A DNA stretch of 64,000 nt from Marsupella aquatica (lineage: Eukaryota > Plantae > Marchantiophyta). Where the stretch lies: the NCBI GenBank assembly GCA_973895155.1, contig OZ316892.1, positions 5,612,476 to 5,676,475 on the forward strand. Reading direction: 5' to 3'. Each line of letters begins with the position of its first letter. Positions within the stretch are counted from its first letter, which is position 1. The notes beneath the pieces were generated by a model that was given only the letters and a program-made list of their open reading frames with translations, made no database searches and was not told where the DNA came from. This document shows, piece by piece, positions 10,045 through 48,800 of this stretch. Both the position numbers and the translations under genes were made by a program.

Positions 10045-12060
10045 ATGGACGTTTGTCGGGAAGAAAAGGGTGCCTAGCAAGAGAAACACATTTCTTGAAC
10101 CCTATCTCGATCTGCAATTATATCACTGCTTGCTAATCTTGTTAATCGCATATCATCCTTCTATGTTATTCCTTTCCTACTTGACACCTAGTTATGCGTT
10201 GGAGTCGTTAATTTCCTTAGTTCGTGCATTTATCGTCCATTTTCCTTTTGTCTCGCCAAGTTTTGCCTGTGTTGCTTTAGTTTACTTGGGCATTCCTCGT
10301 AGTAGTAGAACCATTAGGGCTTCTATTCGATTTGCCCGTGTCAACAAAGTAGTAAGGAATTTCTTCCATCAGCTAGATTTTTAGAAGTAATTGCTCGATC
10401 TTTCTGGTGGTATCAGCGGGTGTAATCGATTGAACATCATTCGCTGAAAACTGAACACCTTCCCAGCTTGCTGCCCAATAATATATGTGCCTCTACTGAT
10501 GGTGTCAGTCCAGAGTCCTCTCGTTGACAACACTCCAACTTGGAATTCCCGGACTGGCAGTTTTCGTGGAATTCTTGTTCTCGTAGAAAAGTTGTCTTGA
10601 AGACTTGCAATATCTCATCATCAGTCTGCACAGAAAACCAATTCATGTGCATGTTCGTGCTCCTTTTTAGCTTTTATATATGCATAAGAAAATTGAAGCA
10701 CCTGCTACTAGAATTGAAAACCATCCCCTAGAATTAAACCTAACACTCATTTCTATGCTTTCAGCTAGCCTCAGTTCTCCCCACTTGTACAACTATATTC
10801 CATCAAATGGATCTTCCGATTCAACAATGTCCGTCTAAATAACAAAGTAGGATCAAAAGCTGCTTCCTCAGCCTATTGTCTAGAGTGAAGCCTCTAGATT
10901 GTAACTAAATGAGGGCATATTAACTGAAAGTGACTTAACCAAGCGAGGCCATAACTGAAAGTGAGGGTGTAGATGCACAAAAAACAAGGATGGGGCAAAG
11001 ATGAATGGGAAATAAGGTGGCATCCTTTTTTCTGCAAGGTTTTTTTGTTTCCTCTCCTCATCTCTAGTTAGGTTCAAGGAACAGGTAACATGCTAGTCGC
11101 TTCAATTATTTGGCCTTGCTTGCCATCTCAGTAAACTTTGAACTCAATTGACAAACCCGTCCTTGCATATGGACACCTTTTGCCCCAACACCCTAGGCCA
11201 ATTTGGCATTTTGTCTCCTTGTTGTGGTTCTTACCTAACTCCATTGCCTCAACTACTCTCCATATTGAGTCCATATTAACTGTCTTCCTACACCAATAAT
11301 ATGGGCTTACTGAGAAGGTGGCTAAGACATGGGAAGTCGTCATCTTAGGAAGTTGGTGTAAAGGTACACCCCATATCCTAGAGGTGAACACTAACCCAAG
11401 ATGGCACATGATTGATTAGTGCACACATGGAGGATTGCAATTTGCTTGCACTATGCCCCTCCATCAGTACCCTCATTTTGGACCAGTTCCAAATCTGATA
11501 CTCATGGGAAAACGGGTGTCAATTGTTGTCCACTAGCAAAAACCACTGCATTTTGGTCTCCCTCTTTTCCCCCACTTTCATTGTAGGTCAAAGGGAGTTA
11601 GCTTGGACAAATTATGAGCCTCTATATATGTGTCCTCTGAGCAGCAATTCTGTGTCATTTGGATTAGTTTATAGTTCACCCACATACAAAATGAGGGGCA
11701 ACTTGATAGTTGTAGTTCTGCTGTCCAAAGGTTATTATAGTAATTAGTAATTTTGACTAGGTTGCCGGGGGTCAGGGAAAAAAATATATATTGAATATTA
11801 TATCATCCCTCCAAATCTTAAGTCAAAGTTTTATTTTTATCATATTCAAATACATTTGAAATTTACTGATTTATCTGGATTGTAAAATTTGAGCCCCATC
11901 TAGCCATTCATTTTATAGTTTTCTCCCTGAAATTGAATTCTGAAAAGTCTCCCAAAAAATTTCAACCTAATGGTCTTACTGTTCAAGGGGATATTTTGGC
12001 TCAAGAGGTCATTTGAGAAACCCATGATGGCCTAAATTCAAACCCAGAGAAATTTGAGAA

Positions 12061-12185
12061 ACTGACCTATAGCCCCATCATCCCTGTACCATCATCAGTT
12101 CCAGTGCGGGTCATTTTTAAACACCCTCCCTTGAGCCACAGTCATCTCAAGAGAAATTCCTGATCTTTAACTCTAATATCATGTT
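12061..12185 (-). mobile_element. Inverted partial TRIM copy (LTR end, PBS, internal part, PPT, LTR 5' half)
   Basis: Reverse complement reads aaca-TGATATTAGAGT (degenerate tRNA-iMet PBS)-aaagatcaggaa...tgtggctcaa-GGGAGGG-tgtttaaaaatgacc...gatgatggggctataggtcagt, colinear with the plus-strand units. Confidence 0.75.
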
Positions 12186-12240
12186 CATTGAGAATTTCAA
12201 CTGGAGGGATGTGTACAGGGAAGGTCATACCTTCCTCCTG

Positions 12241-12704
12241 TGGGACCTCCTATGTTCAATTCCTAGTGGGTCCATGTTGTTAAAAGTTCCAACATGGTAT
12301 CAGAGTCAATGATTAGGAATTTGTCTTGAAACAAGTGTGGCTCCATCACGGGAGGGTGCTGGAAATGAACCACACTCAAACCAGAGATGCCAGAGATGAT
12401 GCAGGCATGAGGGGCTTGTAGCTCAATGGTAGGGCAGAACAATGTACATGGGAGGTCCTCCATTCAATTCCCAGATGGTCCATGGTGTTGAAACTTCCAA
12501 CATGATTTCAGAGCCAAAGATCAGGATAGAATGTCTCCTTAAGCAATTGTGGCTCTGACAAGGGAGGGTGTTCCAAATGAACCATACTTATCTTGATGAT
12601 CGTGCAAGAATGATGCGTCTTTAGCTCAATGGTAGAGCACTACCACTTACACTGAAGCTCCTAGGTTCAATTTCTGGCCAGCCATGCTCTTGAAAGTTCC
12701 AACA
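12241..12704 (+). mobile_element. Tandem TRIM (miniature non-autonomous LTR retrotransposon) array with tRNA-derived LTRs
   Basis: LTR1 3' part ends TTCCAACA at 12294; PBS TGGTATCAGAGT 12295; PPT GGGAGGG; LTR2 12357-12502 (TGCTGGAA...TTCCAACA); PBS TGATTTCAGAGCC 12503; PPT AAGGGAGGG; LTR3 12569-12704 (TGTTCCAA...TTCCAACA). The internal parts are only 62 and 66 bp. A further LTR fragment lies at ~12785-12830. Confidence 0.85.
12412..12482 (+). pseudogene. tRNA-like 71-nt cassette inside the TRIM LTR (not a functional tRNA gene); also at ~12617-12684, ~12798-12830 (5' half) and ~12241-12274 (3' half)
   Basis: GGGCTTG-TA-GCTCAATGGTAGGGC (A box/D arm)...GGAGGTC-CTCCATTCAATTCCCAGA-TGGTCCA. The consensus of copies gives A box TAGCTCA(A/G)TGG and B box GGTTCAATTCC. 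The anticodon position reads TAC in two copies (TGTACAT, CTTACAC). Confidence 0.75.
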
Positions 12705-13465
12705 GTTTCCAAAGAAAAGGTGGCCTTGCTTCAAGTGCTGTGAAATTACTCCTTGATGTTCCTTGATGTAGTGACAGGTTTATGGTGCACGGATGATGGG
12801 CCTGTAGCTCAGTGGCAGAGCACTATATGTAGAGTTACGAACGTTTGAAATACGCATGTTTAACAGCAGATCGAACAGATGATCTGTTTAGAATTTTGAG
12901 CTGAGCACGGCAGGGAAAACAACTTCAATGAAGTTTTGGACAGAGCATAATGGTATGATGAACGTGATTGCATTGTGGATTCTGTTCTTTACAATTGGGG
13001 CAGCGAATGCAATGGTACTAGGTCAGTGACTCATGAAGACATCTGCTAGGGACCTTCCAACAATTGACCCCACAGTGATCTTTACAATTCCAGAGTCCAC
13101 AAACTACGAACCTCTCTCGCTACCTCTCTTTGACAAAAGAGGTCACTCGCTTTCTCTCTCCGGCCAGAGTTGGGGGCAGGACAATTCTCTCTCCTTCCAC
13201 CTCCGTTTGGTTTGCGCAGGTGACCCCATTAACAAACGGCAGCAGAAGAGTAGTTCCATCTTTTAACATTATAGCTAGATTTAAGCATCTCCTCCTGCCA
13301 CTGGGGTGGTAGTTGACATATTATATTATATGACGAAGCAATCCAAGAGAGCGAAATTCCTGAGCTACTGTGTCAACACTAGTCGTCTAAAATTTAGAGG
13401 TTAAAGTAGTTGAGTGTACCCTATCCACCTGTAACTTTAACAGGCGTTCCAACCAGAGACATTAT

Positions 13466-13542
13466 CAGCAACAGTACTCGGAACGAGTTAAATCGTGAAG
13501 AGCTAATCCAGCAACAGAACTCGGAACGAGCTAATTGTGAAG
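13466..13542. repeat. 43-bp period tandem duplication
   Basis: cagcaacag(t/a)actcggaacgag(t/c)taa...gtgaag at 13466 and 13509. Confidence 0.85.
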
Positions 13543-14083
13543 GTTGGTTCTGCGAGTAAATCTTCAAGAGCTCATCCTGCATTTGAACGGGCTAATCATT
13601 AGCACGAGACAAGCCATAAAGTCTATGTGGGCTGTCTTGCAAAAATAATAATTGAGGACTATCAGGCAGAAACATGAAACTTTGGCAGTAATGCGTTTGT
13701 GTAAAATGAAATGAAGTCTTTGCAGAAAGGTCGCTACACTCCTGGAAATGGAAATTTCAGTACAGGGCAGCCGAATTTAGAAGAGACCAAATACAATCAA
13801 TTCCAACTTGCTGGATCTACCGAACATGCCACTTGTAACTCAAACCTCCTCTTTCACAGTAGTCAGTCGAAGCTGTAGATGGACGAGAATTGGTTTCATT
13901 CACTCAGTGATGCAAGTGAAGCTACCGAGGAACGCAGAGCTTCAAATCACTTTATGCTCAGCATAATTTCAGACTCAGAAGAAGGTCGTCCGAGAATTCC
14001 GAGCTCTCTGTGTCCGATTCGTCAGGCAAGGAAAAAGAACAATCACTCGAGCAGGCAAGGAGAACACATTGTGATATGCATAC

Positions 14084-14252
14084 TTGCTCAAAGGCCTGGA
14101 ATCGAGCAAGGAAGCTCCCGAATTGTTCGATCGAGTGTTGCCAGAAAGAAGGTCAAACTTGCACTGTCCATATTTGCTCAAAGGCCTGGAATCGAGCAAG
14201 GAAGCTCCCGAATTGTTTTATCAAGTGTAGCCAGAAAGAAGGTCAAACTTGC
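14084..14252. repeat. 90-bp period tandem duplication downstream of psbO
   Basis: ttgctcaaaggcctggaatcgagcaaggaagctcccgaattgtt...gccagaaagaaggtcaaacttgc at 14084 and 14174. Confidence 0.9.
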
Positions 14253-14931
14253 TCTTCAAATTTTAGTTGCTGCCTTATCAGCCCGCATACTGTCTGTTTT
14301 CTGATTTCTTACTTTCTGAGGAATGGGGCTACAGATTGACAGCATACAGCCCATCTGTAGAGGACCTCGGCCGTCCCATTACGTAACGATACTAAGAAAT
14401 CCGAATTGAAGGATCCGGTGCATGATGTAGCCAATGATCAACCCATGACAATTACAAAGGAAAATATTGGTTGGCATCCGATTGGCCTGGCAATGCATTT
14501 CAATGAGTACGAGAGCACATCGTGTTGCGGTAGTCAAACACATGAACATAAGACATTCGTTGCGAAGTTGTAGGCCAGAGACATCGGTACCTTGCCAAAT
14601 TAGTTCCATGAACAGAAGTAGTCCTCCCATAACCATCTTCAAATGACTTGCTAACATTCTCACAGAACAATTCAACATTTTAGGACCTAGAGAGAATTAG
14701 AGTACAACTTCAATCGATGAACTCGGTTGGATACGATGTGCGTGCGACAAAGCCCTGAGCGAAAAGCTTCAGCTTTAGGTACACTCTGTAATGAGAGATT
14801 TCCTTTGTACACAATTACAAAATACAAGTCCACACGCCGCTGGTTGATTGAAGGTGATGAAGATTCGACAAATGACAAGGCAACTGAAGCAACTTCCTAA
14901 GATAAGACGAGACGATAGAAGACAGCTTCGC

Positions 14932-16190
14932 TTATTCGATCTGCGCGTACCAGATGCCCTGGATTTTGACATCCTTGGGAGCCTTGGAACCTAAATCTGT
15001 ATCAGAGGGTTGGATGCTCTCGAACACTCCGGCAATTTCTCCAGTCTCGATGTCGCTCTTCGCGAGCTTGAAGGTAATGTTACCCTTCAGAGCGGCGGTA
15101 TTCTTCTCGTTTTCCTTGGACAGCTCTTCCTCATCACCACGTCCTCCGGCGGGGAGGGCGACAGCGTTATCGTACCCAGTGGATCCACCCCGTCCCTTGG
15201 GGTCCAAGAAAGAAGAGCCTCGGTATGAAGGCACTAAGTAAGTTCCACTGAAGCTGTCTGCCTTGCCTTCAGCTACTAACTCCTTAATGGTGAACAGAAA
15301 CGGAACCCTCTCGCCTCCGGGGAGCTGCACTGTGACAGCTGCGTAGTCAATTCCGTCCTTCTCTGTGAACTTGACCGATCCGTCGCCGCCGACCTTAAAA
15401 TCTCCCTCGATGGCGTCCAGGGTGTACGTCAATCGGGTCATCAGCTTGGTCTTCTGGAATTCGTCACCGGCACCCTTGAAAAGCCCCTCGGACTTCACGG
15501 TGAAGGACGTCGGCTCCAGGCAGAGGTTCTTCAGCTGATAGTTTCCAGGTTTGAACTTGCTCAAACCGCCCTCGCCACTCTTGATAATTGGGCACTGATT
15601 GGCAGTTCCACTTCCCTTCACCTCCGAGTAGGTCTGTGCCTGAATCTCGTCGTAGCTCAAACGCTTTGGCACGCCCTCGGCATTGGCACCCTGTATTTAT
15701 TTTGCACCGCACCACACCACACCACAGCAGAACCACCAGAACAATGCAATGCCCTCAGTGATGATCTCTCAGAGAAAAGAAGGAAACACAAGAGACATGT
15801 ACAACGGCGTTGCAAAACAAATTTACACTAAAACAAGGCGATGTGAAGATAGAAGTGCACAACAGAAGACGCCGCATTGATGATCATGAGAGCTGAGAAG
15901 AAACTGGAAGGAGGAGGGTAAACGAGAAGCAAAGATCCGAAACTTACAGAAACAGCCAAAGCGGAGGCGGCGAGGGCGACAGTGGCCATCTTTCCAGCAT
16001 CAGCACACTTCTTCACGAAGGACTTGACATCCTCCTCGATGGAGCAGGAAACGCGAGCGCTGTTCCCGGCCCGAACGCCAAAGGCCTTGGAGACCGACAC
16101 TCGCTGAGAGAAACTGGCAGACGAGAGGGAGCTCGAGGCCGACAGTCCTGTGACCTTGCAGCAGGCCGACGAGGCAACAGAGGCCGCCAT
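14932..16190 (-). CDS. psbO: Oxygen-evolving enhancer protein 1 (33 kDa extrinsic PSII protein) precursor, 333 aa
   Basis: Exon 1 16190-15948 (MAASVASS...ALAVS), GTAAGT..ACAG phase-0 intron 15947-15691, exon 2 15690-14932. Bipartite transit peptide with ANA|EG thylakoid cleavage site. Conserved motifs [64 protein letters not shown] and [20 protein letters not shown]. Confidence 0.99.
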
Positions 16191-33546: not shown

Positions 33547-35046
33547 TCATGAAGCACTGCAGAGCTGGTTCTCGAAACTCTGGATCTTAGAGTCGCCATT
33601 GTCTTTGCTGGTGCACAAGGAAGAATTGTGGAAGTTGTGGGTGATAGCTTGTTTCGATTGACTGTCCTCATGCACGCGGAAGAATTGCTGAAATTGTGGA
33701 TCCCTGTCAAGAGCTTGCAACACATCTGGAGTTGTCCGAAGGTTCAGAGTTGCAACAGATGAGGACCTGCTTGGAATAGGTGGGAGAACTATTGCCATCG
33801 CTAACATTGACGTAGAGCCAAAAGAGTTCGGCGTCGTAAAAACGTATGGCTTGCCAAAGCCGAAATCTATTTCATACATGCCGAAGTTGTACCATGAACT
33901 GAGGCACACGTGCCTAAGTTTACTGTTCGCCAAAGCTCCCATTGATTTCCCAATCACATCGGAATCGAGCCAATCCTCCCTCTTCGTTGTTTCCAATTTC
34001 TCACGAAATCTGCGCGCAGTGGACACCAAAGGCATCTCCAAAAGCTCATCGGTGGGGATTTCGGGCGGCAAGAGAAGTGTGGTGAAGTTTGCGCATACAT
34101 CGGGAACTGGATGGTCGAGAAACCGTGCTCTCCCTTCCACAGCGCGGCTTACAAAGACCCCTTTGTCAGGAAGTACTGATGGCCGAAGCACCTCGAAACT
34201 CCTCATCAATTGAGCCGCAATGCAATCTCCGGTGCTTACGTATCCTCGGTCCTCTCTAAGGCTTTTAGCTTCCTCTTTCAGAACTTTGATTGTCGATGCA
34301 TCAACTTCGAAAACTTTCGTTTTCCATGGTCCCAATTTTGCAATACGCTTGAAGGTAACCACGACGCCCGGGTCGGGGAATAGAGCTGCGAGGGATGGTA
34401 CGTCCAGCTGCGCTCTATTGTGATCCACTTTGACGTCGGTCTCATTGGTTCGAGAGAGGTCGGACCAGGCTCTCATGAAGTTGGAGAATCCCTGTCCATC
34501 CACATGCATGTGATCGAAGGTCACCGCCAGAACCAGCCCCCCGCATTTGAAACGGGTCACCTGGACGAAAATGGGAGTCGCTCCTCCTGGGGGCAGCTGC
34601 TGCGTGTGCTGCGTCACATCCAATCCAACGAAGCTGTGTCCCTGCAGCTCCGGGACCGCTTGAAATGCAGTAGAAGCGTGCACCACGGAGTCTATATCTG
34701 CGTCCATGTATGCTTCTATGAACGGAACGCCCTCATCGTTGCACAACAGCTTCCGTGCTCCGTTCCCCGGCGATGTCTCCACCCAGCGACCAGCGAACGA
34801 GAAGAATGGAATCAAGACCTTGGACAGAGACTCTTTGATGCGTTTCACTGTCTGCGAATACACAGCATCCGACTTGTCGCCAAGTCTGTAGGCGAAAAGA
34901 CATGGAAAGAACATCTCCGCGAAAAACGAGTCGAGGATTGTTGCGTCGATGGTTTCCACATGAGCAGTCTTCTCAAGTGGTTTGACGGTGGTGTGCAAGA
35001 CATCCGTAAAAGGAGGCAAATCCAGGGAGAGGAATTGATGCGCCAT
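33547..35046 (-). CDS. BAHD-family acyl-CoA acyltransferase, 499 aa, intronless
   Basis: Single ORF with SLSKVLIPFFSFAGR, CNDEGVPFIEA, QVTRFKCGG, catalytic HxxxD (HMHVDG), SSW and DFGFGKP (DFGWG variant). Confidence 0.96.
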   Translation of the reverse strand: MAHQFLSLDLPPFTDVLHTTVKPLEKTAHVETIDATILDSFFAEMFFPCLFAYRLGDKSDAVYSQTVKRIKESLSKVLIPFFSFAGRWVETSPGNGARKLLCNDEGVPFIEAYMDADIDSVVHASTAFQAVPELQGHSFVGLDVTQHTQQLPPGGATPIFVQVTRFKCGGLVLAVTFDHMHVDGQGFSNFMRAWSDLSRTNETDVKVDHNRAQLDVPSLAALFPDPGVVVTFKRIAKLGPWKTKVFEVDASTIKVLKEEAKSLREDRGYVSTGDCIAAQLMRSFEVLRPSVLPDKGVFVSRAVEGRARFLDHPVPDVCANFTTLLLPPEIPTDELLEMPLVSTARRFREKLETTKREDWLDSDVIGKSMGALANSKLRHVCLSSWYNFGMYEIDFGFGKPYVFTTPNSFGSTSMLAMAIVLPPIPSRSSSVATLNLRTTPDVLQALDRDPQFQQFFRVHEDSQSKQAITHNFHNSSLCTSKDNGDSKIQSFENQLCSAS

Positions 35047-38000
35047 TCTTACTGAATCGTTCTCCTCCTCGATGTTCAGAATTGTCGATTGAAATTGTCT
35101 GTTGTATCTACATTGAGATCGTCTATTGTACCTACACTGAGATCAGGACTTGAGCATTGAGTCGTCGTGCGTTTCTATTCACCGCACCCAGGACGCACAT
35201 CCTGAACCTCGACCAGATCAAAGCCAACACCCTCGACTGTGCGCACTTTAACTCCGTTCAGCTCACAATAAGGCTTGGAGAACAGCGTTCAACTACAGTA
35301 GCCCTGACTTTCACGACAAGTTGCTAGATTTTGGAAAGCATCTCTCAGCTAGCCCACTCTTTTTCTTTTCTTTTTTGCCTTGAAAGGACCAATTGAATTT
35401 CATTCAAAAAGTCAACATACAGAAAGGGGGGCCCAAAAGACACCAACCCAAAGGACCAAAGGTCAAAGTGCTAAGACCGGGGCCGGTACCAGGGAAGAAG
35501 TTGGCCCCCAAAAGGGAGGCACCTAAACAAGTAATTTAGAGACTACAGCCGGAGCAGCAAACTCCTAAAGACTGGCCAGTGATCAGGTTCCGGCGGGGTT
35601 CCTTTCGGTGGGTCCGTGAGAGAGCCAATCAGTCAGTCTGCAGTGCAACTTCCTAACCTGAGATAAGATTCTGATTCACGGGGGACGTGGAGGGACAGGC
35701 GGAACTTGGAGAGCTTCATCGTGGATCTCCCACAGGCCTACCCAGGTGCCGTAGTTAAAGGACATCTCATTTCGGGCCTCTCCTAGGGTGGTCTTGCCAG
35801 CCCTAATGTGGACTCTATGTCGTGCCCAGTCCTTTCGGAGGTAAATTCCGAGTCGATGCCAGGATTTCCGAATAACCCCCTGTGGGTTAGGTCTGGTGTG
35901 TTCAAAAAAATGTGTGCTTCTGTCCTTCCACACATTCCAACAAATGATAGCCCGAAGGGTATGCCATTGAAGCTTTACCGGTGTATACCACTCATCAGGT
36001 AGTGGCACTCCAACAAAAATGTGTGCGGGCTGAAGGCGAATTGAGTTGCCCCTAGAGAATGCACAAAGCTGGAGAACACCTTCCACCCATCTCCAAATGA
36101 TCTGAGATTGATGACAGCTCCATATGCAGTGAAGTATATCTTCCTGTTGATCCAATCCACACTGGGTGCACCAAGTGCTGGTATCGGAGGGTGGTAGCCG
36201 CGGAAATCTCCAATGTTGTGTTGCCGGGATCCTGTAAATCAACTGCCACAAGTAGCAATTTTCACTAGCAGCCTGAAAAGGTAGCCAAGTATCAGCCCAT
36301 AGCGTAAGTGGGTCCGGTCTCCAGTTCAAGCTGATGGCCCATTTCTGCACCGCTTTGTGAAGGGGTCCAGAAGTTGTACCTTGAATTTCCCTCAGATGTG
36401 TAGTGTGGGTGTCCAGAAAGGGAAGCCCATCTTTCCACTCATATTGTAGCAGGGGTGAAAGGGATCCCAGAGGCCTGCCAATCGGCTGCTTGAGAATGGG
36501 AGCTCTACCATGTGATCTCACTAGAACCCGGTGTAGAACGGTACCGATCAGGGGAGCTGAGTTGACCGATTTGTAGAGGAGTCCATTTGTCACCTTGAAG
36601 GTCTGCCTTGGATGTGAAGTATCATTAAATCTCTGCCATTGAGTTGTGACTCGATTCCGCTATATTTGGTATTCCCAAATGAACAGAGTTCCACAGGGCA
36701 TGGTAGCTTCCATAAAGACAGGAACGAGTTGCTCAGGCTCGCCATGTAGTTCTGGTACTCTCCTGAGGTTGGCAATAAGCTTGCGGTAGGCACGGGCGCA
36801 ATTCCCTGGGAGTATCAAATTCGAGCCTGCCTCCCATTCGATGAATCTTCCCTGTACATCTAGGACATCCTGCATGGAAATAATCCCGCCCTCCTGATTT
36901 TTCTCTGTGGATTGCTACGACATTTGGCTGCATTAGCATGGATGTGATTGATGTGCGGGGTCCAAAGAGGAAGATCACGCCATCCTTCTAAATGAGCAGG
37001 GGGTGTGGGACGGAGGTTCTTCTTGATGACATTCCACCCTGTACAAACATTGGTCCATACCTTCAAACCATTGTGTGGCAATGTGTGGCAGTCTCGGGTG
37101 GCAGTATGGGAATACCCAAGAGAAGTCTTCCCCTCCCCATTTTTGCTTAGAGAGTTGTTTAATCTCATGCTGTAGAATTCGACGCAGTGGGTAATCCCCT
37201 TCGGCCAGTGCCCAAGTGATGAAATTGCCTGCCAATGCCCTGAATTGCGCCACCAATGAGATGAGTCCTAGTCCCCCCAGCCGCTTTGGTCGAGTGATAG
37301 TAGCAAAGGCAACCCTCGATCGGGCCTTCTCGTTCTGCCCTGCCCACACGAAGGCAGTGATTTTCTTCTGAAGTGTAGCCAGGGTGTGCAGCTGCCCAGT
37401 CTTGATCGTGAGCATAAACCAAAGAGTGCTCATGACTAAATGGTTAGCGACCGTGACACAAGCAATAAGGGACCCCGAACTCCAACGGACCTTGTCTAGT
37501 CTGGATTCAAGCTTCTCCGCTAAGTAAGGAAAGCACCATTTGTTCTTTAGACTGAGATACTCTGTGCCACAGGAATTCCTAAGAGCTTAGTGGCGGTGGC
37601 TTCGGTCTCCCAACTCCAGGGCAAACGCCTGAATTGAATCGGGAGTCTGCGTGGGGAAATAAATGCTACTTTCGTTTTCTCCCAAATGCAAACGAGTCCG
37701 GAAGCTGGGCCAAAAAGGTCCAAGATCTGCTTACAATTGTCAACATTCTCCATGAAAGCGCGAATGAGCATAGCCAAGTTGTCTACATATAAATTGTGCA
37801 CATTGTGTACGCGTACAGGTTGAATGTCGACACCCTGAATGGTCCCCCTATCGACCGCCCATTGTATTATCCTGCTAAGGGCATCAATTGCAATAAGGAA
37901 CAAAAGAGGTGATAGGGGGCATCCCTGTCTGACCGATCGGGCTAGACTAAAGGATGAAGCCATTTGCCCATTGAGAAGTACTGCCGAGGATGCTGAGGCA

Positions 38001-38058
38001 TGGGTAGCTCCCAAAAATTGGATGAGTAGCCCGTCGAAGCCAACCTTCCCCATGAGAG

Positions 38059-38345
38059 CTCGGGGGGTTGACTATCAAAAATCTTAGGAACCACGTGCGA
38101 TCCAAAATAGGTATTTTTGGCAGATTTTCACTAAATTTTTAAAAAGCGTAGGAGGCAAAAGAAGGTATTATAAACTCATGTTTATAGAATATTCTTTAAT
38201 ATATACCCTTTATAAAGTAAAATAGATTATTAATATTGAAAATAGAGAGTATTCTTGGAATATTTTCTTTATAAAATAGGTCTATTTATATTAGGCTAGG
38301 ATCGCACGTGGTATCCCAAAATATACACTTAGTTAACCCCCCGAG
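38059..38345. mobile_element. 287-bp MITE with 8-bp TSD (hAT-like TSD length) inserted in the LINE RT
   Basis: TIR CTCGGGGGGTTGACTA / TAGTTAACCCCCCGAG (1 mismatch); inner inverted ACCACGTGCGATCC; TSD CATGAGAG at 38051-58 and 38346-53; removal restores KAFDKLEWPFLMALMGKVGFDG. Confidence 0.93.
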
Positions 38346-38608
38346 CATGAGAGCCATCAAGAAAGGCCATTCAAGTTTGTCGAAAGCCTTGGTTACGTCT
38401 AATTTCATCAGAATGTAATCCAGGCCAGAGACGTGAGCATGGTGTAACATTTCGTTGAGTAGCATCTAGGAATGGTGAATATTCCAACCTAGTAGAAAGG
38501 CAAATTGTTGTGGTGAGATGAACCTCTGTAGGACCGGAATCAGACGTAGCTAAAAGGCCTTCGCGCCAATATATCTTGTAAACCACATTCAGCAAAGTAA
38601 TGGGCCTT

Positions 38609-39252
38609 CTGGAAAGAACGCAATGCGGCGGCTTACGATCAATCTCATGGTAAAATCCCTATCTGGGTGGTCCTATAGAGGACTGCGGACCATCTCAAAA
38701 ACATGCTTAGGTCCAGCAGCACTCCAAAAAAGAGCCGACAGATCCAAAGAACTACTCAAGAGTTGACTAACATTCTCCACATTGTGGATCAGACTGGTGA
38801 CACTGGGACCATTGACATAGGTAGTCATGAAGAGTAAACTCTGGGGCTTTGCTTACTGTGCTTGGACTAGCCTGGGGCATGCTAGGGAGGATTGTGTTGC
38901 CAAAATTGATAGTACTTTGTCTAGGAAGGACAACCAGGTTTTTTCCATGGAGAGTGGACAACCCAGTGCTCACTTGAAGGCCAGTGTTGGGAATAATGAG
39001 ATTAGTAAGGCCAATGTTGGGAATTATGGGATTAGTAAGTGGCTTGGGTTGGATAGGATGAGCCTTGGCGGATCTAGTTGGGATTGTGGCAAGGATCCTC
39101 TGCTCACGGAGGTTGGTTGCTACAGGTGGGTGCGGGGTGAGGGCTTTGGGGAGCCCCCCTCTCCCTGCGTGTTTGTGCTCTGTCCTTTTTGCCTGGGTGG
39201 GAATTACCCCCGGTGCTAACTGACGAGGCTGGCCCCCCTTCTTTGAAAAAAA
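38609..39252 (+). mobile_element. 5'-truncated second LINE inserted antisense into the host LINE RT
   Basis: 10-bp TSD AATGGGCCTT at 38599-608 and 39253-62; A-run at the 3' end; begins with the ORF2 C-terminal motif WKERN; removal restores YLTNKRPITLLNVVYKI. Confidence 0.88.
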
Positions 39253-42200
39253 AATGGGCCTTTTGTTGGTCAAGTACCACTGATCATCCTTCTTTTGTAG
39301 GAGTACAATGAATCCCCTAGTAATCGCATCAGAGAAAACCCCCTCAGCCATTTCTTGCATAAGCGCACCAAGCAGAGAGGGACCCACAGTGTCCCAATGC
39401 GCCATGAAAAACTCCACCGGTACCCCATCTAGACCCGGGCATTTGTTGCACACCAGCGCTGTCGTAGCCTTTCCAAGCTCCTCCAACGTGAAAGGCTCAT
39501 TCAACATCTCTTGGTCCTCCCTTGTGATCCTTGTTTTTTGCAGCTCCAGCGGGAGCTCCAGAACCCTTGCAATGTGTTCCCACTATGGACTCGCAGATTG
39601 GCCCAAGATATCCTTGAAAAAAGTAGTGGCAGTATCAGCCATCCCGTCCCAATCGCTGACTAGCAGATTCTCCTTAGTGAAAAGTTGAGTGATTTCGTTT
39701 TTCATGGCCAATCCTTTGAAAGTTCTGAAGAAAAGCTTGGAGCATTTTTCCCCATCGCCAATCCACCAGGACTGCAGAATGTAGTCCATCCACTGGACTT
39801 TCTCAGCCTCAAATTCCTGCACCAATGTTTCAGTCGCCTTCAGAGCATCTTGATTTTGAGCTATGTGTGGGTCCCTCTCAAATTGAAGCTATGCCTGGGT
39901 GAGCGATGTACGAAGTTGTGTTTCCCGCAAGCGTCTCTCCAGGGCCTTCCTTTTCCCCCAACTTCTGTCAAACTTCCGTGCCTTCCCCAGACAATGAACA
40001 AGAGTCTTAGCTGTCGATAAACCTCCCCTCCAACAAAGCTCTTCCTCTCTTTTCCACATTCTTTCCATGCGCTCCCGGTACTCCGCCTACTTCTGGTGGC
40101 TGACGTTCATGCGGTGTTGTGAGGGGTGCTTGACAGGCACCACCGGGGTGATCAAAGCAATGACAAGGGCATGATCCGACAAGGGGATCCCAGGAATAAT
40201 AGTGGAAGAGATATCAAATTTACCACTAACCCCCCTGGAGGCATAAATTCTGTGGAGCCTTCTCAAAACTTGGCCTTCCAGGTTTTGTAGTTCTTGCATG
40301 GCAAGGGCATGGCAAAATCTTCTCTTATTATCCCAACTGAAGCGGAGATGTCCTTGTTGCTCCTGGAATGAGTCCACTAGGTGAAGTTGCCTCATGAGAT
40401 GGCACCAAGCTCGCCTTTCACTGCCTGATATAGTTGTGCCTGGCCCCCAGGGCTCTGATCGGAAGATTGTTCAATCATATTAAAATCCCCCATAAGAATC
40501 TAGGTGAACGATGGGTCCAGCCGATTGAAAAGCTCCTGCCAGAGGTTCGTCCTCTCCCTAGCCAAGTTTGGTGCGTAGATTCCAAGAAGACCGACCTTGC
40601 CCAACCCATCATGCACCAAGCAACACCAAACAGCTCTCCCTGAGTCAATCACTCCCTACAAAATGACAAATTGACGGAGCACTGGTGTAATGGCAAGAGC
40701 TATACCCCCCTGGCCAGCATAAACGTTATCGTTTTGGATGGAGTGGGCTCCATCCGTCGCAGGCGCACAAACCCAGTGTGCAGATCTCCAAACCTCTTGC
40801 AATTTGCAGATTCTGCGAGCACGCAATTTATGCTCTTGAATACACACCACGTCAAGGATATGTTGCAGCTCCTCCAAGATGAAACGGGCTCAAAGTCTGC
40901 ATCTCCGGGAGGCTAAGCCCCGCATGTTGTATGTGAGAATTGTTAGTTTGCACATTGGGAGTCGGAGGGATTCTATGGCAGTGCGTACCTATATGTATAG
41001 GTTCTAATAAGCGCGGTCTTTTGGCAGGGGCGGGGGCAGGGGGTGTATGACCCCCAAGGAGAGAGGCAGCGGGTCTGAGTCAGTTGCAGAGGGTTCTCTC
41101 GAAAGCGGACATTTGCGTATAGTAACGTTTGTCCTGTCAAAAGGAGGTGGTGGGGATGTCGTTCTTTCAATAGGAATCACAGGTGCAATAGAAGACGTTA
41201 CCTCCACCTCGCCTGTTTGGGGCCTTGCAATCTGTGAGACGGGAGTTTCACAAACCTGTGTAGGAAGGACCACCCACACCTTTTTTTTGGGCCGTCTGTG
41301 GGTGATTGGAGTATGTTTGGGAGAGGTAGTATCAATTTGCACAATGGGGAGCATAGTAGATTTGTTGTGCGTAGGTTCCACACTGCCAATTCTCTCATTG
41401 GAATGGACAGCCTGCAGACTCCTGCTTGCACAAGATATATCGTCTGTAGTGTTGTCGCATTTCCTAGGATACTTGGTGGTGGCACCTCTATTCCTCTTCC
41501 GGGAAGATCTGTTGTGGTGATTACTGGAGGACCGGTGCATGGCAGAGGATGACGGGTGAGTACCACTCGTTGCCACCTTCTCTTTCTCCAGAGTAGCCGC
41601 TTGATGTGCTAGGTGTTGCAAGTCCAGTTCCTCCTTCTGATGTTCTTCAGCTCGCACCCTCCAGTAATCCGCCTCCTCTCTGGCCTTACGGGCCTTCTCC
41701 TAGTAATCGTGCAGCACCACTGCATCCAGTCGTACTCTTTGTTGTGTGGATGTTGCGATAGGGTGCTGGGCATCTTCTCCTGGGGCGTTGAAGTGGAATT
41801 TGTGGCCCTTGAAGATATCAGGTCGTGGCTGCTTGCACTTTGCTGCGTAATGCCTGTATGAGAAACAGAAGCAACATCAAAGATTTATGCTGCTGTAATC
41901 AAAGGAAACAGTGGTGACACCTGGGCGACTAAGTTGAAACTTACCGTGTGCTGGGAAGATTTTGAGTGTGGTTTCAACAATAGCTGAAATGTGCTGCCCC
42001 TCAATGCCTGGTGCTTGCTTTGCGTGTATGAGAACCGTCCGATGGGTGCCACAACGAATTTAATGTACTCGTAAATCTCAGGACTGCCTTGTGGAATGTA
42101 AACCGTTACCAAATGTTTGAAGTCCTTGGCGTTGCATGGGTCGAAGCTTGGCGTGTAGTCGTTCATGGCTGCAAATCTGTCAAGTGCTTTAATAGGGGAG

Positions 42201-45842: not shown

Positions 45843-48800
45843 CTACCTTGGTCTGAACAAGTAGGTTTGCCCACCTCTCGTGAGGCAAGTAGTTCCCCTG
45901 GCCAAGACAAGAATCAAAAAAACAATTACCTTGTTTTTTGGCATTCCTTTCAAATTTGTCATCCATCTTCCCTGGGAAAGCAATGACTTGGATAACCTCT
46001 GGGTTTGTCCAGCGTAGTCACAAACTACTATCCTCCCCTTCTTCGTCTTCGTCCTTGAGTTGCACCACCTTTTGAGCCTTTTTGACTTAGTTTCTTTGCA
46101 TGGGGCCTCTAGGCTGCCCTTCTTCTTTTGGGTAGCGATCGCCATTTCTTGTCCAGGCCCCATGGCTTCCCGAATCATCCTGGCTGCTTCATCCTCTACC
46201 TCCCATGACATGGTAATAGGTGGAGTTCCGAATGTAAACTGTTTTGTGCCCCAGTTTTCCACAACTTTCGCAAGGTACAACCAGGGTCGTCCTATCAACA
46301 CCCTAAATGAGGTAGGGTTCACCGGCTTCATCACAATGTAATTAATGTTGAATGCAATACCACCAATCTCCGTGCGTATTCCTCGAAGAATACCTGTGGG
46401 AACTACCTGGTAGCCGTTAGCCATATTCAATACCCTACCAGTCAATTATGGTTTGAATCCCCAAGCCGCCGCTGTTGAATCAATGAGTATGCATACCCCA
46501 GACCCTCCATCGATTGGTACATGCATAACCTTTTCTTTATTGATGATGACTGGTAAGCAAGGGGCTCCCCTATCCTCCTAAATCATCATGACATGCGTAC
46601 GAGTGGCTACTCTAGGAAGCCTTGGCTTCCCGGCAATGGCTTTTTTCAATTGCTTCCGAAAATACGGGCTATTTTTTAATAATTGACCCACAGTAGCCGT
46701 AACGCTTGATTCCAACACATCCTTTGCCAAGTTGTATGGCACCAGCTGTTTCCCTGTGTCATCCTCCTGGGGTAATTTAATTGCTCTAAGAGGATTCTTC
46801 TGAGTTGGTAATGATTCTGGTTCCTTTGGTTCTAGAGGTGTGCTTGGTGAAGTCAGTGGTGACACACTTCTGTCCTCCACTGTTTCCATTGAAGCGGAAA
46901 CAATTTCCTCCTTCATTCGCTTGACAGCTCTCTTAATATCCTTCTGGAGTGCAACCTCATTCTCGTCCTTTTCCAGCTCTACCAACTGCTCCTTCACACT
47001 AGCCGTGACTGCCGGAAAAAATAAACTGGGATGCGTTCGATCAAAATCACTATCCTGGGAAGGACTGGGATCACCACGTACGACTTGCGGGTCCTCAGTG
47101 ACAGGGGCTTTGCCGCTAGAACCCGAAGACGTGGAATCAGACGCATCTTCCTTCCACTGCTTCTTTTTCTTGGTAATCCCCTCCCACCTTTGCTTCCTTC
47201 TGGTGGATCTAGTGGACACGCGGTAACAATCGGCATCAACTTCTTCTTCAGAATAAGTGGACAGGGCGTCTGCTTCATCGTTGGAAGGTGCAAATTCCCC
47301 TCGTGCTTCTTTACGCCATCCTAAGTCAATATGATTTACCTGGGCTCCTCCTGGCATAGTTCCTGCTGGCAGTACCTTTGGTGCGGGTTTGACAGGTACA
47401 GCAACCATCCCGGATAACCAAATAAGGCATTGGGTAAGTATATGCCCTTCTCCTTTGCAACCCATACAAAGCTTGACTGGCTGACCATCCGCCTGCTTCC
47501 TTGCATTGGTGCACTCCCGAGAGAAGTGACCTGGTTGACCACAATTATAGTATGCTGCAAATCTCTGAACATTTGGTTGTGGAGGTGTAGTTGGATTTTG
47601 AATGATACATCTCCCCTGCATTGGTTCTCAATGCTCCCCACAAAGAGGTGGGTCGGTTAGCCAAATCTCGGGCTCCGGCCTCACTGATGCCACACACACT
47701 ATCCGCGACATCTCCAAGTATGTACTCCACCTCCAACTCTCCTATCGTTCCCTCGGTTATCAATCGAACATTCTTTGTACCACGCTTTGGACAAACATCC
47801 TTGTGATGTCCGGTGGTATAACAGTGAGCGCACCATACTGAGGTGTCATCGGCTGCCTCCCTCTTCTTCGGCTGGGAGTTGGCTAATAATGTTTTTAACT
47901 GCTCTGTGATCGCTGTCAATTGATCCGGAGATGCTTTCTTAGGATCCAACTTGGTTTTCACCTTTTCTGCAACCTTCTCTTTCTTCTTGATTTTATTTTT
48001 TTTACTCTTTTCATCATCCTCCGAACTGGAAGATGTTTCACTCTTACTAGTATCACTCTCAGAGCTACAACTCTCCTCCTTGGCTTTCTTGGATCGCTTC
48101 TTCTTGGCCTTTTTCTTGCCTAATTCCTCGTCTGAAGATGAATCGTCAGATTTATAGTGTTCTTTTTGGCTCGTGATATCAGCATTGATGTATAGCTGAA
48201 TATCATGAATCACCTCTGCCAAAGACTCCGGATTCCCCTTCCAAATTGCGAAACTCATCTTCTGCGGTAGGGCATTAACCAACCAGTGCAACTGCATTTT
48301 GTCTGATGCATTGGTCTTGGTTCGTCGCACCAATTTGTGGAATCGCTCCAAAAATTTCCGAAAAGACTTGTTCTCCTTGAATTGAAGCCGTCCTAGCTTC
48401 AACATTGCCAATTCAGACGTCCCAATGGGACAAAATTCCTTGACAAACAGTTGCTTGAAGGTGACCCATTCATTCTATTCCCCTGGTTCCAAATTGGAGT
48501 ACCATGGTCGAGCCTCACCCTTAAACAACCCGGGTAAGATTTGCATCTTGATAGCAGACTCTCCATTAGCAGTTGCAGTCCCATCAAACTCCTCAAGCCA
48601 GTCATCCGGGTCCTCCTCATGCTTACCATGAAATGCCTTGTAATGGATTTGTGATCTCTGATTGAGCCGTGGTGCTGCTCGCCCACCAAATTGTGGATCC
48701 GGCTCACCCATCTCTTGCACCGGTGAACTGGGTTGGGTACTGGGCGAGTTACTACTCAACAGATCCCCTTCCTCGTTCTCCAGTTCCACTCCAAAAAGCA

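Follow-up and report, generated by a model that had tools for sequence, protein, structure and literature searches.

An ancient tandem array, inverted in part, of a Helenus-type element with tRNA-like LTR cassettes in the liverwort Marsupella aquatica

The stretch of 64,000 nucleotides of Marsupella aquatica DNA analyzed here (hereafter, the window) very probably carries tandem copies, old and inverted in part, of a dispersed non-coding element of the Helenus type. Active members of this multi-copy family likely rely on Pol III, acting on a tRNA-like cassette in the LTR, for their transcription and likely on the enzymes of a helper retrotransposon for their copying. On the plus strand, the array reads as half an LTR, a PBS, an internal part, a PPT, an LTR of 146 bp, a further internal part and an LTR of 136 bp, with one inverted piece and one lone half LTR beside it (Table 1). 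The motif TTCCAACA closes the LTRs at 12294, 12502, and 12704, the PPT GGGAGGG begins at 12350 and 12562, with a minus-strand copy from 12130, and the A box lies at 12419, 12622, and 12805. The PBS directly adjoins the CA end of the LTR and the PPT directly precedes its TG start; within the window, the LTR starts are worn (TGCTGG and TGTTCC). The LTR-internal-LTR segment (12357-12704) covers 348 bp of an element of about 350 bp, includes internal parts of 62-66 bp, and contains no ORF of at least 130 residues; the element is devoid of coding capacity.

Table 1. Features of the array and of the pieces beside it (positions in the window)
Feature	Position	Strand	Remarks
Inverted piece: 5' part of LTR	12061-12123	-	U3 up to worn A box; 41/54 to LTR2, z 7.3
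Inverted piece: internal part	12124-12181	-	Worn PBS, intact PPT; 47/58 to internal part 1, z 10.3
Rearranged junction	12182-12240		Worn minus-strand LTR 3' end; TGTACA at 12212-12217; short inverted duplication
LTR1, 3' half only	12241-12294	+	B box region, acceptor 3' arm, end TTCCAACA; 43/54 to LTR2, z 13.0
Internal part 1, 62 bp	12295-12356	+	PBS 12295-12306, flush with LTR; PPT 12350-12356
Predicted short stem around the PPT, 3' internal part to start of next LTR	12339-12375	+	z -1.84
LTR2, 146 bp	12357-12502	+	
tRNA-like cassette of LTR2, 71 nt	12412-12482	+	A box from 12419; T loop 12463-12469
Palindrome TGTACA, anticodon-position loop of LTR2	12443-12448	+	Also the family majority
Internal part 2, 66 bp	12503-12568	+	Worn PBS; intact PPT 12562-12568
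LTR3, 136 bp	12569-12704	+	Cassette 12615-12684; palindrome gone from loop
Lone 5' LTR half with cassette	12782-12833	+	U3 end, A box, D arm, worn loop; 39/50 to LTR2, z 10.6

Comparison with shuffled sequences bears out the LTR-internal-LTR-internal-LTR order with shared LTRs that a first-pass annotation had read from the letters. LTR2 and LTR3 agree at 97 of 133 aligned letters (z 11.8), the two internal parts (12295-12356 and 12503-12568) agree at 47 of 62 (z 9.0), and none of 1000 shuffles scored as well in either case. The first LTR of that order is present, but as a 3' half only. The inverted partial copy and the orphan LTR piece, also proposed in the annotation, match LTR2 or internal part 1 significantly. 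Of its finer motifs, the PBS reads TGGTATCAGAG in the first copy as announced, whereas the second copy carries two changes, and the B box GGTTCAATTCC is not found in its exact form in any of the three.

The units of the array are only 73-81% alike, with K2P distances of 0.22-0.34 to which no rate was applied, and the array is therefore old, in agreement with the copies having been described as old and diverged. The inverted piece corresponds to positions 7-69 of LTR2 and LTR1 to positions 93-146, and since these parts are complementary, we infer that an inversion cut through LTR1. The region left of the inversion, where its other end might lie, holds no 5' half of a further LTR (z 1.0), and neither flank of the array holds LTR remains (z at most 1.0). 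Reading 12705-12781 as a third internal part with the start of a fourth LTR did not reach significance (z 0.2-1.7), which leaves the lone piece at 12782-12833 unexplained. The inverted piece and the array together (12061-12430) can fold into one long hairpin that could yield small RNAs if transcribed. An Rfam match to MIR7533 (43.5 bits, against a cut-off of 230) corresponds to this hairpin and was rejected as a microRNA family match.

The contigs of four public sequencing runs (X1 to X4, from two studies with two species labels, one of them perhaps that of the window) were aligned to the stretch, with at least 80% likeness required. On 11900-13100, they number 127 in X1, 83 in X2 (about 57% of the run covered), 202 in X3, and 202 in X4, most of them less than 90% alike, and their depth peaks at the LTR end and PBS, at the PPT and LTR start, and at the cassette. 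Three of the eight pieces listed for X1 (in contigs of 2483, 955, and 5262 nt) span the succession LTR end, PBS, PPT, and LTR start with 16-22 other letters, at a depth about equal to that of the window's own contig. In the best-supported rows, loose contig ends diverge past the LTR ends 12294 and 12704 (agreement 0.47-0.53) and likewise ahead of the LTR start at 12360 (0.61-0.67), where they end in TGT, but match one another inside the element (0.74-0.97). This pattern is as expected from separate insertions bounded by TG...CA, and it substantiates the multi-copy family that had been supposed. At 12306 and 12349, the majority letters of the family are C and A, respectively, and its PBS reads TGGTATCAGAGC. 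A single 57-nt contig over 12622-12672 reaches a depth of 1178 in X2, against 46 for the window's own contig; as a rough hint only, depth points to a family of tens of copies. A small depth peak formed by other contigs at 12966-13006 perhaps marks a different repeat.

A second, diverged version of 12099-12257, junction included, is found in X3 and X4. There, the locus as a whole has a second version about 90-93% identical, flanks included, with rows at 12740-12779 that are absent from X1 and X2. It could represent a second subgenome, a mixed sample, or a duplication. Because this version includes the inversion junction and the flanks, the array and its inversion are likely older than the divergence of the two versions.

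A tRNA-derived SINE or a satellite, the tandem copies of which would merely mimic an LTR-internal-LTR order, might have been suspected from the tandem period of about 203-212 bp and from the TSD, none being seen at the array, whose 5' end is lost; the GTTTC following LTR3 has no partner at any LTR start, and no TSD is claimed. However, neither a SINE nor a satellite accounts for a PBS set flush after the CA end and a PPT flush before the TG start, and the other loci leave the repeat at those same LTR ends, so that such an origin is barely credible.

Each full LTR contains a stretch of 70-71 nt in which acceptor, D, anticodon, and T arms can be parsed together with an A box and a discriminator, and the LTRs possess the box A (TRGCY, YGG) and box B (GGTTC) of the Helenus definition. 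The 71-nt tRNA-like cassette of the first-pass annotation stands as far as this parsing and these boxes go, but the Rfam tRNA model matches LTR3 only, with 19.1 bits (E 0.98), below its 29-bit cut-off. ARAGORN makes no tRNA call at its default setting, and at -ps85 it reports LTR3 as Val(tac), one of five calls in the window. The D and T stems can pair in LTR3, the acceptor stem is imperfect, and the cassettes, as worn single copies, fold no better than shuffles (z 0.83 and 0.07). Taken as an anticodon, TAC suggests a valine parent tRNA; it lies in a loop whose family majority has G where tRNAs have U33. The pair G3-U70 together with A73 is the alanine signature. A functional tRNA gene was rejected in view of the G at the U33 place, the imperfect acceptor stem, and a cloverleaf score that nowhere exceeds the cut-off. 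In 11500-13500, no match to 5S rRNA, the sequence from which the Cassandra cassette derives, was returned up to E 10.

The low tRNA scores, the poor folding, and the imperfect acceptor stem would also suit an ordinary Pol II TRIM in whose LTR a tRNA or SINE survives as a dead relic, with a cassette devoid of any role, the more so as the Pol III function of Helenus is not validated according to Kojima (PMC10886601, in the part available). Yet it is the core from the A box to the B box that draws the greatest depth on 12608-12708, gathering the largest number of contigs and the one collapsed high-depth contig, the D and T stems can still pair in LTR3, and the same boxes are kept in the available Selaginella consensus. 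We therefore consider a roleless cassette improbable, and retain the Helenus-type reading with a likely Pol III promoter in the LTR.

Judged on its sequence, the element is of the Helenus type (TRIMp3) and forms a new Helenus family, as the first-pass annotation had proposed: its LTRs have TG...CA ends and tRNA-derived boxes, it possesses a PBS and a PPT, its size falls within the 311-1263 bp published for Helenus (Kojima 2024, PMC10886601), and its family is dispersed. That paper reports a 5-bp TSD for plant and fungal Helenus, tandem arrays for a fish Helenus family, and a single plant member, Helenus-1_SMo from the lycophyte Selaginella moellendorffii (LTR 120, internal part 85, TSD 5 bp). 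By eye, Helenus-1_SMo and the liverwort element share the LTR start TGTTRGAA, the LTR end TTCCAACA, the iMet PBS without spacer, and a GTGTGGC motif ahead of the PPT. With the anticodon arm set aside, their cassettes agree at about 46 of 55 letters, also by eye, when the liverwort family majority is taken. Their sizes are similar (325 bp against about 350 bp), although the liverwort LTR is longer (136-146 against 120 bp) and its internal part shorter (62-66 against 85 bp), and the TSD reported for Helenus-1_SMo is not seen in the bryophyte array. A run of T follows the cassette in Selaginella and in most of the families examined, whereas no T4 run follows it in the liverwort.

Fungal Helenus, for which a Copia helper is inferred, comes about as close in its cassette (about 45 of 55 letters in Helenus-1_AmAr, by eye) and also has a palindromic loop, and cassette likeness alone thus proves no plant-only lineage. 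Fungal members differ from the liverwort element in the letters of the PBS, in the internal part, and in their CTAG or CATG cores, located two letters earlier. Compared at the level of the consensus sequences available, the LTR ends, the PBS, and the internal motif favor Selaginella over AmAr as the closer relative. Cassandra TRIMs resemble the element by their Pol III-type cassette within the LTRs, their tandem arrays with shared LTRs, and their proposed read-through (Kalendar 2020, PMC7215508), but their cassette derives from 5S rRNA instead of a tRNA and they measure 565-860 bp (PMC10886601). The literature search, confined to openly accessible papers, found no report of a bryophyte Helenus; PMC13570524 and PMC12859917, in the parts available, merely cite Kojima 2024. 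Pattern scans for relatives returned no match in JGI metagenomes and none in viral contigs. The single match in a bacterial genome has neither LTR nor A box and was set aside as chance.

As for Helenus in general, we infer Pol III transcription and mobilization in trans. Pol III would start just upstream of the tRNA-like cassette in the 5' LTR, and its RNA would run through the 3' LTR and, in an array, through further units. This read-through is suggested by the absence of any T4 run in 12240-12835, an absence that is not significant in itself (261 of 2000 shuffles also lack T4). Initiator tRNA-Met would then prime at the PBS and the PPT would prime the plus strand, the cassette would serve as R for strand transfer, and the integrase of the helper would insert the copy. 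Read-through combined with template switching may have produced the array itself, or else recombination between LTRs, with a later inversion in place through LTR1. For the arrays of Cassandra, which has read-through transcripts, both LTR recombination and template switching have been put forward (PMC7215508, in part), and by analogy either route would fit the liverwort array.

The helper would more likely be a Copia than a chromoviral Gypsy element, for just two reasons: Kojima infers a Copia helper for fungal Helenus (PMC10886601, in the part available), and a stem possibly encloses the PPT, weak here, as reported for Sireviruses (PMC2829016, in part). For the stem at 12339-12375, 9 of 200 shuffles are equally good, the other two copies are not significant, and no double change is observed. 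A stem-around-PPT layout is visible by eye in Selaginella and in several of the fungal Helenus consensus sequences. Priming by tRNA-Met does not single out a Copia helper, since most chromoviruses use it as do most Copia lineages (PMC6317226, in part). The window contains no helper candidate, and the PBS string occurs in it only at 12295. A broken LTR retrotransposon gag region at 45843-48474 (-) reports a zinc knuckle and Retrotrans_gag just under the cut-off, and no link between it and the TRIM was found. Another broken element, at 35676-39582 (-), carries a reverse transcriptase fragment (RVT_1, E 5.6e-09) and looks non-LTR-like by eye. Elsewhere in the window, a PsbO coding stretch (14932-15696, -) lies about 2 kb from the array and shares 88% identity with Calypogeia fissa, 79% with Marchantia, and at most 80% with any further named plant in the top 120 of 966 matches, which on this one gene makes a leafy liverwort the likely host; an ORF of the transferase family (BAHD-type, E 2.5e-44) is found at 33547-35142 (-), and short direct repeats, with a 26-nt pair and a duplicated stretch visible in the translations, at 13466-13534 and 13879-14339.

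The loop at the anticodon position has a feature of its own. LTR1 and LTR2 read TGTACA at this place (from 12212 and 12443, respectively), LTR3 reads CTTACA, and neither LTR3 nor the lone piece retains the palindrome. Among the aligned contigs, T at 12646 and G at 12647 are carried by 17 and 16 of 27 in X1, 9 and 10 of 15 in X2, 24 and 23 of 39 in X3, and 24 and 23 of 40 in X4, making up more than 87% of depth in each run, and 12648-12651 show no variant row. Since T and G dominate at these positions, the family majority is a perfect hexamer palindrome, TGTACA, with G at the otherwise invariant U33 place, keeping in mind that the cut of at least 80% likeness favors conserved loops. At this offset, six letters past position 26, Helenus-1_SMo has ACCGGT, and the two palindromes differ at all six letters. 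By eye in the consensus file of Kojima, a Watson-Crick 4-mer palindrome lies in or beside the loop in 108 of 116 fungal Helenus LTRs, with cores that are mostly CTAG or CATG, but also GTAC, CCGG, and ACGT; the families are related, the letter window was judged by eye, and the idea was formed after seeing the data, so this count is a lead. In animals, about 49 of the 81 LTRs examined possess a palindrome, two of them doubtful. The expected share is 24% under a canonical-loop model and 28% for random 9-mers of the window.

These loops suggest an RNA dimerization signal, possibly class-wide. A self-complementary loop could bring a pair of RNAs, or both ends of a single RNA, into kissing contact and so serve packaging or strand transfer. 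This is the least certain step of the proposed cycle and one that we regard as doubtful. In its full form, the proposal would be that Helenus captured a tRNA and recast its anticodon loop as a kissing loop that dimerizes or circularizes the RNA of the element within the particle of the helper, and that compensatory changes preserved this signal in fungi as well as in a lycophyte and a liverwort; we advance it tentatively, as a possibility that may well fail. The genome of HIV-1 dimerizes through the DIS, a hexamer palindrome in a loop (PMC7357161), and Ty1 dimerizes through its PAL palindromes, although initial kissing-loop contacts could not be confirmed (PMC6844567; both sources in part). 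A short palindrome is common to these and to the present loop, but function was shown there and is predicted here. The present hexamer is also the weaker one, UGUACA pairing with itself at just -4.8 kcal/mol where GUGCAC reaches -7.9.

Within a Helenus element, the palindrome could instead be inherited from a few ancestors, be a by-product of CpG decay, or form a DNA site for a dimeric protein, and explanations of this kind have, taken together, not far from an even chance. Because the families are related, the 108 of 116 stand for a much smaller number of independent events, CUAG arises unaided in a canonical loop whose anticodon is AGN, TG and CA are products of CpG decay and are favored by it, the duplex energies are weak, and fungal cores span only four letters, while animal families are mixed. 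Against them, the cores differ by double changes in the consensus sequences available (CTAG, CATG, and CCGG in fungi, CTAG and CCGG in oysters, AGATCT and GGATCC in wasps), the liverwort and Selaginella hexamers differ at every position and are both palindromes at one offset, and three of the eight fungal LTRs without a palindrome have CTGG, a core still able to pair in RNA by means of G-U but not palindromic as DNA. The searchable text of Kojima 2024 (PMC10886601) holds no mention of a palindrome, dimer, or kissing contact, and a search of openly accessible papers for a palindrome or dimer signal in Helenus or TRIMs returned nothing; the palindrome looks new as an observation.

This array itself is a dead relic. 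A liverwort Helenus would nevertheless double the known plant range of Helenus and, if descent was vertical, would place it on both sides of the split between bryophytes and vascular plants, making it older than the approximately 250 million years given for Cassandra. If the kissing-loop signal is true, it would point to one very old Copia-dependent lineage and not to many separate SINE insertions. The loop palindrome would then offer a testable answer to the question raised by Kojima of how dependence on a helper is maintained without LTR likeness, and the element would provide a tiny RNA for studying retrotransposon dimerization.
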